Below, in pieces: positions 18,816 through 22,164 of a DNA stretch of 64,000 nt. Numbering within the stretch: the stretch's first letter is position 1; each line of letters begins with the position of its first letter. The position numbers were made by a program, and so were the translations under genes. Origin of the DNA: Vairimorpha necatrix (Eukaryota). The notes under the pieces are model-generated. The model saw only the letters and a program-made list of their open reading frames with translations. It was not told where the DNA came from and did not search any database. The stretch is from assembly GCA_036630325.1 (NCBI GenBank), contig CP142730.1:62001-126000 (forward strand), read 5' to 3'.

Positions 18816-20095
18816 TATTCTTATAATTAAACGTATTCTTTATAAATATTGTTTTTAATTTTTTCTGAAATGTTATGCGGATGCTGACGATATTTTTTGA
18901 TCTTACACAACTCAAGTTAACTGAAAAGAGTAGTTATTGCAATATTAGAAATGATTTGATATATTTTTGAGCTTGTAAAAGCGTACATGAAATTTTATGA
19001 TCTACCGTTATTTTATCTTTAGAATGAATTCCTAATTCTTTTATAAGATTTATATCGAAACTTTTAAATACAGTTTAATAAAATAATATTATAATGTGTA
19101 AATTGGATTGCTAACCACATATAGTGACTATTTAAATTTTATAAATCAGATTAAAGACAATTCTAAAATATATATTTACATGTTTTTGAAGTAAATTATT
19201 TCAATACCGATTATAAGTAATGTAAAGTAAAATATTCCATGAAAAAGTCGGTTAAATACATTAAACTCTACAAAATAAATATCGCAATCTAATTATTTAT
19301 AAATAATCTACTTATAACTTTATAATTTGTAAAAATAATTAACATACAAGACAATATTGTGAAATATTGCATTTCCTTGTATTTTTATGCAATAAAAATG
19401 TAATTATATATGTTGAGAATATACATTTAATAAATTTAACCATTAAATTACAAGTGTCTTTTATATGGTGGAGAAGAAAAAAATGATCGAACCTAAACAT
19501 AAACAAAAGTAGAGGTTGCAAGTTCCGTCAAAGCATGAGACGTAAAAAATGCAGTAAATGTTAGAAAGGGATGGTTAGTTGTCTGACAGAAGGGAATGTG
19601 ATGGCTTGTATCAGTAGAGAGACACGAATGGGTGAAGACGCCGAGAAGCTAGGTGAAAACATATTGACTGTATTAAGATCTTGCATTAAAAATACTCAGA
19701 TTGAGTGTATTGGTAATTTCACTATTTGTATTTAAGCTATTGTAGCAAGATAGCTGAACTACCATTGTTCAAAATCCAGCGAATTTAGAAAGATAAGAAA
19801 TCAGAAAAAAACTGTGTTTTAGTTGAAGAATTGCATAGACGGATATAATTCGGGGTTGTTGTTAAAAAGACATTTTAAAATTTAAAGTTACAGACTTATG
19901 TATTGTAACGGGCGAAGAAAGTACTGCAAAGACCAACCCAAGAGAGTTCAGTAAGACGCGAAAGAGTAAAGCACAGTCCATGATCGGTTAACATAAAAAA
20001 TTCCTTTTTTTGATAGCCATGTAATATGCGTAGAAGAGGTAAAATAATTACATTATTTAATTTAGAATTTAGCACGAGGATGTTGATAATATTAA

Positions 20096-20904
20096 GGTGC
20101 CCTTGGCCGAGTGGTCGAAGGGATGTTCTCATTGACCAATGGGCTGGGTTCGAGTCCCAGGGGCACCAAATTGTTTCTACTTTCTATGATGCAGTTGGAA
20201 CAACTCAGATGATGAAAATGTCCACGGTAATCATTAAGTTGATTCAATGAAACTTGTGTGTGTCCAGCCACAAGGGGATTATAGCATCTAGTGTAGAAAC
20301 GCACCTCAAGGCCAAAAAGCAGTATCGCCCTCTGGTGACTTAATGATACATAAAAGTATCTAATGGGTACGGCCTAGTTGGAGCCCATGGCTGGTGCACT
20401 CTAGAGTGGGATCCTAGAGCTAACTAAGAGACTAGACGAAGTAGGGCAATAGAAGGTCTCGTGGACCCTATCCTACATGATTCTGTAACACGGTGGCCGA
20501 AACTAGTGGGAGACTGGTGGTCAACGCAGTCCAATAAAAATGCCGGGCTGGGGATGTGGTCGTGTAAGGAGCCGTGTGTGCGATACAGATGATTGTAGGG
20601 ACCTTTGAGTCAGTACGATGATGTCTCTCCTCGGGTTATAGATAACCATGCCCGTTAAGTATATCCGCTGTGAGGTCACTCTGGACGCGATTTGAGGTAT
20701 AAATGGAAAGTGTTCTCCTGGAGCCAAAGTCCAATGGATACGGCGGAGCTTGCTGCACCGGCAAGTTATACGGAGGGAGTTTTAGTGAGTAAGAATCTCA
20801 CAGTACTAGTTGGAAAAGGATCACACCCAAATCCCTCTGGTCCCTATGTAAGGTTTCTCCCTACCTCTTACTTGCAAAGAAAAAAAAAAAAAAAAAGAAA
20901 AAAA
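20096..20904 (+). mobile_element. tRNA-derived SINE (~810 bp) with poly(A) tail
   Basis: tRNA-like head at 20096-20168: GGTGCCC/GGGCACC acceptor stem, A-box TGGCCGAGTGG, T-arm CTGGG-TTCGAGT-CCCAG. GC-richer non-coding body, A-tail at ~20876-20904, and a perfect 14-bp TSD GTTGATAATATTAA at 20082-20095 and 20905-20918. Confidence 0.92.
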
Positions 20905-22164
20905 GTTGATAATATTAATTAATAAATTTAGACCTTAACTTACATCTTCTTTAACGATTATAATGAAAAAATGTAGAAACTTGCAATACCAATAACTAAA
21001 ATAAAAAGTAATGTCTTACTCTTCTCTTAATAAAGTTGTAAACTCTTAGAACTAGTTACAACTGCTTATAGATGTATTTAAAAAATCTAGAATCGAAAAA
21101 GAACTAGGTAATTCTAACAACAAAAGAAAAATAAAAAACTGGTGAAAAACGTGCACAAAATACTTTTTAAAAATAAAAAGAGGTTTAAAAAGGTAAGTTT
21201 AGATGAGATTGTTTTACGAAATTTTTGGTCTTGAACTTCTAATAATGATATTCGATTTCTGTTTTTAGGGTTTGTTTTTAAGTTTTCTTTTATTTTTAGC
21301 GAACACCTCGGCTCAAGGTAAAATGGAAATATCAACAAAATAAATCCTTAATGTCTTTACAATAATAATTAAATTATTTTATAATATATATTAGCTATTT
21401 TCTTAAGTTACTATTTAAAAGTTTTTATTGTAAAAATATTTAATTTAATATTTGAAAATTAATATAGCGTATTTGCGACTAATACAAATAAAAACTTTGT
21501 TTAAGAGGGGTTTCATGTATTATATTAGTTCCTCATATATGACCTATACATTGAAAAATAATTTAGCTCGAAAAAAGTCAAAAAGAGATTCCAATATTTA
21601 AAAGCTTGATTATACCCTTTTTATATCCAATACTGTTATTATATATTATATGAAATATATGTTATAATCTAGATGATAATTGTCTTAAGCCGTTAGGTTA
21701 AATGTTTTGACTCGCTTTTACATTAAATAATAATTTCTGCTTTAAATTTTGCTTTGAAAACGAACAATGTTATAAATTGTAACAAAAAAAAATATATTAT
21801 TTAAAATAGTATCGTTCTTAGGTAGTATTTTAGTAAATGTATTAAGAATCTGTCTACTGATCTATAAATTAAGGCTATTTTTCTGTTAAAAACTGTTTTC
21901 ATCTAAAAAAAATTTATTTTGATTGAATATAAAACAATATCGGGATTCAATTTAAGTTTAAATTTAAATACGATGTTTTAACATATAAGTATAAGAAATG
22001 AATTTATATATTTAAGCATACCATTTTACATTCTTTGGAATTAAATTTGGGACTGGTTTTTATAACAGAGTGTCAAATATGGTTTGTAAATATTCCACTT
22101 TGCCCCTAGCAAAAAATTTTTAAGAATGAATTTATATTTTACAATCTAGAAAAGATAGAAAAGT

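Follow-up and report, generated by a model that had tools for sequence, protein, structure and literature searches.

What is the GC-rich, non-coding block that sits between genes in a microsporidian genome otherwise poor in G and C, and how did it get there? The question is raised by a 64,000-nt stretch of Vairimorpha necatrix (assembly GCA_036630325.1, contig CP142730.1, positions 62,001 to 126,000 of the forward strand), the whole of which was analysed and is called the window here, all positions being counted from its first base. An original prediction, which was made from the letters of the sequence, had described the block as a tRNA-derived short interspersed nuclear element (SINE), dependent on a long interspersed nuclear element (LINE) and recently inserted, and this core reading is supported by a duplicated target site, an A-tail and diverged copies in public sequencing runs. 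The block is likely a young copy of a dispersed family of non-autonomous retroposons of the kind without long terminal repeats (non-LTR), namely a tRNA-derived SINE that is moved by a LINE. It belongs to a multi-copy, diverged and dispersed family, and its insertion was probably recent, since the duplication is perfect, the tail is almost pure, and a single sequencing run has 186 pieces of at least 99% likeness.

Borders and anatomy of the element

The retroposon block comprises 809 bp (20096-20904, +), with base 1 of a tRNA-like head at its start and A17-G-A7 at its end, and it is flanked by the perfect 14-bp direct repeat GTTGATAATATTAA (Table 1). This pair is the longest exact match at an offset of 823 bases in the whole window. 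As 35 other pairs of 14-mer direct repeats (overlapping pairs counted) lie 300-1500 bases apart in the window, a repeat of this length alone is not rare in such AT-rich DNA, and the weight of the 14-bp repeat lies in its exact framing of a block that runs from a tRNA start to an A-tail, not in its mere occurrence. Base composition changes at the same borders: in 100-base steps, the left border shows a rise in GC content from 0.27 to 0.52, and the right border a drop from 0.37 to 0.20. The element has a GC content of 46.6% with its tail and 47.9% without it, while the flanking 2 kb on the two sides have 24.8% and 25.0%, respectively. The element is not arranged in tandem in the window. The A-tail, the perfect duplication and the difference in GC content had all been named in the original prediction and were found as described. 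The predicted length of about 810 bp was right as well; it had been called long for a SINE, and is not exceptional beside the fungal SINEs of 472 to 900 bp that the relevant passages of PMC5063351 enumerate.

The head was drawn by ARAGORN with a perfect acceptor stem of 7 bp, a D-arm with a 3-bp stem and an 11-nt loop, and a T-arm with a perfect 5-bp stem and the loop TTCGAGT. The consensus motifs of the internal promoter of RNA polymerase III (Pol III) are TRGCNNAGTGG for the A box and GGTTCGANNCC for the B box; each of them matches only once in 64 kb, inside the head, and the two boxes stand at canonical spacing. The head also has a low folding energy (-39.6 kcal/mol, z = -4.27). ARAGORN labelled it tRNA-Met(CAT), a forced assignment with pairing at just 3 of the 5 positions of the anticodon stem. 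The Rfam tRNA model RF00005 could be aligned over its positions 1-71, with the anticodon region skipped, and scored 20.3 bits, below its gathering cut-off of 29 bits, while a genuine tRNA-Gln gene in the window reached 63.7 bits with the same model. A functional tRNA gene was rejected on this score together with the incompletely paired anticodon stem. The top Rfam match of the head was the mascRNA/MEN-beta family (mascRNA-menRNA, RF01684), whose short hairpin aligns to the single hairpin of the head (20128-20143); at 28.6 bits, below the gathering cut-off of 42.5 bits, membership in this family was rejected.

A class II (Leu/Ser-like) tRNA is suggested by the head, which has acceptor, D and T arms and a hairpin beside the last of these, and a putative Leu/Ser origin by the look of its D-arm, the sequence of which resembles those of Leu and Ser tRNAs. 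A canonical anticodon arm is absent from the head, and which arm has been lost is something that we infer. The anatomy given in the original prediction, with a perfect acceptor stem and T-arm, A and B boxes, and one hairpin instead of a proper anticodon arm, thus agrees with the present analysis. The same hairpin is also legible in the consensus of the loose ends of diverged copies from two public runs (X2 and X3, see below). Transcription of the element by Pol III is suggested by the A and B boxes.

The body of the element has no Rfam match and no similarity to any other part of the window. No open reading frame (ORF) longer than 95 aa overlaps the element, the longest having exactly 95 aa, and no Pfam family was found for any overlapping ORF of at least 75 aa. 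The element is therefore non-coding and non-autonomous, being without a reverse transcriptase or endonuclease of its own. A structural signal of the whole RNA was absent on both strands (z = -1.73 for + and -0.72 for -, 20 shuffles each). When a 93-aa ORF that extends across the head was used as a protein query, three candidates were returned, none of which scored, and an 86-aa ORF of the body returned no candidate. An exact 20-mer from the 3' region was found in metagenome contigs at a single locus of phage-like coding DNA that has no other similarity to the element, and was regarded as a chance match; the same verdict was given to a 22-mer with one N, which among genome contigs hit one metagenome-assembled genome of Synergistaceae with a similarity of 23 nt only. 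The 3' 20-mer and two other patterns had 0 matches in viral contigs.

As predicted, the element contains a single T4 run, which is a possible internal stop for Pol III. Background stretches of the same length have 13.1 such runs on average (minimum 4), and none of 79 stretches had one or fewer. Shuffles of the element's own composition, however, have a mean of 2.37 (P(<=1) = 0.29), and the idea of T-run depletion as a Pol III signature was dropped because the count is not significant against this standard. The Pol III genes of the window stop at short T runs, T4 in the 5S rRNA gene and T5 in the tRNA-Gln gene, pointing to short T runs as the terminators of Pol III in this genome. As a separate observation, two contigs of a public run (X1) depart from the element at 20782, within the T4 run, into A-rich sequence, and a shorter subfamily that ends at the T run may exist.

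Copies of the element in public sequencing runs

Parts of the element are contained in 20 public sequencing runs from 18 studies, and at least half of its sampled 31-mers were present in three of these runs (shares of 0.66, 0.57 and 0.52). The only RNA runs among those found, X19 and X20, contain 0.04 of the sampled words. Shares below 0.2, which are those of runs X6-X20, were not used as evidence for habitat.

The contigs of four public runs, each from a different study, were aligned to positions 19400-21600 at a likeness of at least 80%. They gave 542 pieces for X1, 315 for X2, 25 for X3 and 6 for X4, figures which, like the summed depths below, are contig counts and summed contig depths and not copy numbers. 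The pieces are diverged to different degrees. In X1, 186 pieces are at least 99% alike to the window, 120 are 95-99% alike, 105 are 90-95% alike and 131 are below 90%; the corresponding numbers are 48, 54, 78 and 135 for X2, 5, 9, 4 and 7 for X3, and 0, 1, 2 and 3 for X4. The same alternative letter at position 20227 is shared by 23 distinct contigs of X1 and 31 of X2. Many pieces continue into sequence unlike that of the window (share 0.02-1), with many different loose ends. Where the original prediction had named a single-copy locus as the outcome that would speak against a SINE, four runs thus yielded hundreds of diverged pieces with other flanks, which is incompatible with a unique retrocopy.

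Summed depth falls sharply where the A-tail begins, from 224,835 (20806-20879) to 605 in X1 and from 282 to 0 in X2. Over the body, the depth in X1 climbs from the 5' to the 3' end, from 36,714 to 224,835, which fits the gradient expected for 5'-truncated copies or for a 3' end held in common with a LINE. In X3, the right flank of the element (21059-21214) was found with 0 differences, together with several variants of the element, and an independent sample therefore contains this genome or one nearly identical to it. Joints that skip the element, as an empty allele would, were absent among the 15 of 43 joints listed.

Proposed mechanism and rival explanations

In the proposed mechanism, the A and B boxes inside its head would drive the transcription of a source copy, starting at or near tRNA position +1, and the transcript would consist of the head, the 711-nt body and an encoded A-tail. 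The endonuclease and reverse transcriptase of a LINE, acting in trans, would then nick the target and prime on the A-tail (target-primed reverse transcription), as the tail and the duplication of the present copy suggest, and staggered cleavage of the second strand would give rise to the 14-bp duplication. The partner LINE probably has the body, if not all of it then its 3' part, in common with the element. The features by which the element corresponds to a SINE are its size below 1 kb, its interspersed and non-tandem occurrence, the A and B boxes, the non-autonomous nature, and the A-tail with a target-site duplication.

Several observations weigh against this reading. The window contains one copy of the element in 64 kb and no second, and the runs supply contig counts and depths in place of copy numbers. 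The window contains no LINE either, just as the original prediction had stated: all 95 stop-to-stop ORFs of at least 75 aa were scanned against Pfam and no LINE-type endonuclease was found, while the only reverse transcriptases, three RVT_1 matches, all adjoin RNase H and integrase of the Ty3/gypsy type. The head falls below the gathering score of tRNA, and it agrees with tRNA-Gln, the one genuine tRNA in the window, at only 32 of 73 positions. As T4 and T5 runs end the Pol III genes of the window and the T4 run of the element precedes the tail by 97 nt, a full-length Pol III transcript would need read-through. The target-site duplication begins with GTTGAT, without an A-rich start. L1-type endonucleases use an A-rich target motif, and the partner may therefore differ in its cleavage preference.

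The distribution of depth also speaks partly against a uniform SINE family. The rise toward the 3' end is seen in X1 only, and the depth over the body in X2 is flat (465-793). In the bin with most of the head (20066-20139), depth is reduced relative to the following bin by factors of 15 in X1, 13 in X2 and 40 in X3. The 30 nt of flank included in this bin are too little to cause such a drop, so most copies of the body must be head-less, have a head less than 80% alike, or have been broken by the assembler. Many alignments clip at 20168, which is the border between head and body. The consensus of the loose ends ahead of 20168, built from 10 contigs of X1 and 12 of X2 (agreement 0.64 and 0.5, respectively), reads as a diverged T-arm and acceptor strand, and that ahead of 20142, from 3 contigs of X2 and 2 of X3 (agreement 0.78 and 0.93, respectively), as a diverged D-loop with the same hairpin. 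These clipped letters are tRNA-like, and related heads are therefore present on other copies, either more diverged than the bodies or on only some of them. Several head subfamilies, head-less copies that are 5'-truncated or made from processed RNA, and a body in common with a commoner LINE are all possible explanations of the step between head and body.

This step is also what gives substance to the proposal that the abundant repeat represents the 3' portion of a LINE, or that of some other retroposon transcribed by RNA polymerase II (Pol II), and that the head, carried by a minority, is a signal for RNase P and RNase Z or a captured passenger and not a promoter. The 13- to 40-fold drop in three runs, the clipping at 20168 and the increase of X1 depth toward the 3' end would all follow from it, and 784 nt without the tail, plus an internal T4 run, are long for a Pol III unit. 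An acceptor stem with a T-arm is the minimal substrate for RNase P and RNase Z, both parts are intact here, and the top Rfam match of the head was the processed, tRNA-like mascRNA. Nevertheless, the copy starts exactly at tRNA +1 and has consensus A and B boxes at canonical spacing, the clipped letters ahead of 20168 and 20142 are tRNA-like in X1, X2 and X3, which makes heads common, if diverged, and no trace of a reverse-transcriptase ORF is left in the body, so that we regard this proposal as improbable. The same related heads, joined to the body in three runs, bear on a one-off origin, in which the reverse transcriptase of a LINE switched template from a polyadenylated RNA to a tRNA, a mechanism known from L1 chimeric retrogenes, or in which a read-through tRNA transcript was retrocopied. 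Its layout, with a small-RNA part at the 5' end, unrelated sequence, an A-tail and a target-site duplication, is that of the element, of which the window holds a single copy. A single processed or chimeric retrocopy is nonetheless disfavoured by the hundreds of diverged body pieces in four runs; the head, moreover, is not a functional tRNA sequence and the body shows no coding trace, and an event of this kind is highly improbable. An assembly chimera or contaminating host sequence in a microsporidian contig, to which the sharp jump in composition at both borders could point, is hardly credible, because a chimeric join would not yield a perfect duplication of AT-rich host sequence around the block, and because the exact right flank was found in an independent run along with near-identical pieces of the element, one of which (20421-20529) has 0 differences. 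The contig, moreover, is listed with a length of 1.30 Mb.

A foreign origin, which the original prediction had raised as a possibility on account of composition, deserves more attention, although we consider it unlikely. The family may belong mainly to an animal host, such as an arthropod, from which this copy or a founder set would have been transferred to the parasite and integrated there by a LINE, making the element a foreign SINE. The GC content is the first argument for this, with 61.6% in the head and 46.6% in the body, against values of 25% for the flanks, 29-31% for the genes, 35-36% for the window's other transposons (the ORFs of the gypsy elements and DDE_3), 44% in tRNA-Gln and 49% in the 5S rRNA gene. 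Parts of the element also occur in runs labelled as bat gut, freshwater, bovine and root metagenomes and as two differently labelled organisms, and in X3, where the exact flank has a depth of 3.8, the element sums to only 6-23, as against 10^4-10^5 in X1. That microsporidia and metazoans have exchanged transposons is documented in parts of PMC4202319, and a 'host-derived' piggyBac in parts of PMC3614468. However, the tail and the target-site duplication place the integration itself in AT-rich microsporidian DNA, and the loose ends beside other copies are likewise AT-rich. Every transposon of the window is richer in GC than the genes, the SINE being the extreme, and the contrast in composition is therefore not specific to this element; the argument from the GC content of the head, for its part, relies on one tRNA for comparison. 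An animal origin would be read from composition, run labels and the depths in X3 and X1, not from a host genome. A SINE that is likely moved by a LINE is the reading that we retain.

Genomic surroundings, known SINEs and significance

The genes of the window are compact and intron-less, and their proteins, among them DPH1, NDK, a VTC domain protein, a KDEL receptor and S26e, are short. The best named relatives of the DPH1 protein are those of Nosema granulosis (63%), N. bombycis (62%) and Encephalitozoon (62%), and other relatives reach 80-83%; the genome around the element is therefore microsporidian. Besides three degraded stretches of Ty3/gypsy type, the window contains an intact-looking transposase ORF among housekeeping genes and two ORFs without a Pfam family (Table 1).

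A repeat directly left of the element (19440-20010) is also found in the public runs, with a summed depth of up to 14,914 in X1 and 124 in X2. The copies in these runs have many differences from that in the window, mostly toward G or C, and the repeat is probably an older, AT-decayed mobile element beside which the SINE landed. An imperfect direct repeat of about 40 nt (19412-19452 and 20905-20944) was considered and is not claimed, as its score of 62 lies within those of shuffles (mean 47.5, maximum 68). It contains the 14-bp target of the SINE and would have bracketed the older left repeat before the insertion, and a loose end in X3 has a second version of it ahead of another copy of the older left repeat.

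Table 1. Positions, strand and GC content of the parts of the element and of other features of the window
Feature	Position	Strand	GC content	Remarks
Left target-site duplication GTTGATAATATTAA	20082-20095	+		14/14 identity with right copy
tRNA-like head	20096-20168	+	61.6%	73 nt; discriminator A; ARAGORN cloverleaf
A box TGGCCGAGTGG	20104-20114	+		Pol III internal promoter; sole window match, 0.21 expected by chance
Single hairpin CTCATTG-AC-CAATGGG	20128-20143	+		Abuts T-stem, at the class II variable-arm site
B box GGTTCGAGTCC	20147-20157	+		Consensus GGTTCGANNCC; sole window match, 0.06 expected by chance
Non-coding body	20169-20879	+	46.6%	711 nt; no Pfam or Rfam family
T4 run	20780-20783	+		No other T4 run in the element; Pol III may stop here; 97 nt 5' of tail
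A-tail A17 G A7	20880-20904	+		
Right target-site duplication GTTGATAATATTAA	20905-20918	+		14/14 identity with left copy
5S rRNA gene	643-761	-	49%	93.9 bits; terminates at T4 run
Degraded Ty3/gypsy stretches	8741-11760, 13466-15602, 28670-31957	-	31-38%	RVT_1, RNase H, integrase, split into several ORFs; + strand GC skew -0.4 to -0.55
ORF without Pfam family	16617-18815	+	22.6%	732 aa; ends 1.27 kb upstream of the SINE
Older repeat left of the element	19440-20010		30-42%	About 20% GC further out; no second window copy
tRNA-Gln gene	35459-35530	-	44%	T5 run two bases downstream
ORF without Pfam family	38169-39584	+		471 aa
DDE_3 transposase ORF	55750-56757	+		335 aa; intact-looking; E = 5.9e-31

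According to the passages on fungal SINEs in PMC5063351, the known families include mgsr1 (800 bp), Egr1 (700 bp), EGH24 (900 bp), Mg-SINE (472 bp) and Foxy. As far as these passages describe them, the SINEs of filamentous fungi are likewise non-coding, 0.5-0.9 kb long and provided with a tRNA-related 5' end, reside in small genomes of fungal type, and form dispersed families of tens to hundreds of copies, to which the present element is likened by description. Unlike them, it has a head without a canonical anticodon arm, and it is about twice as rich in GC as its microsporidian host of 25% GC. SINEBase, in the relevant passages of PMC3531059, defines SINEs as interspersed elements below 1 kb with a tRNA identity of at least 60% over at least 60 nt and a genomic copy number of 100 or more, and takes A and B boxes as an indication and not as proof. 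With the SINE2/tRNA class described there, the element shares the order of head, body and tail, the size below 1 kb, the interspersed occurrence, both promoter boxes, a tail rich in A and the duplication of the target site, although its 809 bp exceed the wording 'relatively short (<700 bp)' of the same source. Like mascRNA/MEN-beta, it has, besides acceptor stem and T-arm, a single short hairpin that replaces the normal anticodon arm. In contrast, the mascRNA model skips the D-arm, which the head of the element keeps, and mascRNA lies at the 3' end of a transcript made by Pol II in vertebrates, whereas the head is the 5' end of a retroposon.

A SINE class has been tallied in another microsporidian genome, that of Nosema bombycis, where it amounts to 28,669 bp or 0.18% of the genome and stands alongside LINEs (Dong-R4), as given in Table 2 and related passages of PMC3614468; in these passages it is a tally from repeat masking, with no structure, head or sequence. 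Zero SINEs were reported for Microsporidia sp. MB (PMC11585130), and in PMC13702014 SINE appears only as a category of repeats. By a term search with supplements excluded, the word SINE is absent from two surveys of microsporidian transposons and from a paper on forty new genomes (PMC4202319, PMC7313128 and PMC12558613). Ordinary as this kind of element is, few descriptions of it exist for Microsporidia.

A bolder version of the SINE reading can be imagined, although it is distinctly doubtful. The family would be the first characterised SINE family of Microsporidia, with a class II tRNA head that has lost the whole anticodon arm and kept the minihelix of acceptor stem and T-arm, the part recognised by RNase P and RNase Z, one transcript would supply both a template for retrotransposition and a free, tRNA-like small RNA, and the family would be shared with the host through recent horizontal transfer. 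If true, such sharing would account for a GC content roughly double the genome's own and for the presence of the element under several organism labels and in several habitats.

Microsporidian genomes are models of extreme reduction, and yet transposons are abundant in some of them, including several that were exchanged with the animals they infect. In the papers searched, SINEs are missing from the principal transposon surveys of Microsporidia or occur as no more than a line in a repeat-masking table. The anticodon-less head, a small curiosity in itself, is relevant to the ways in which promoters that resemble tRNAs evade tRNA processing or make use of it, and the presence or absence of insertions could be used to type strains. 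A well-defined, tRNA-headed family would mark recent LINE activity in these parasites and would serve as a probe toward the partner LINE, and, since its composition stands out from that of the genome, it would permit a clean test of transfer between host and parasite.

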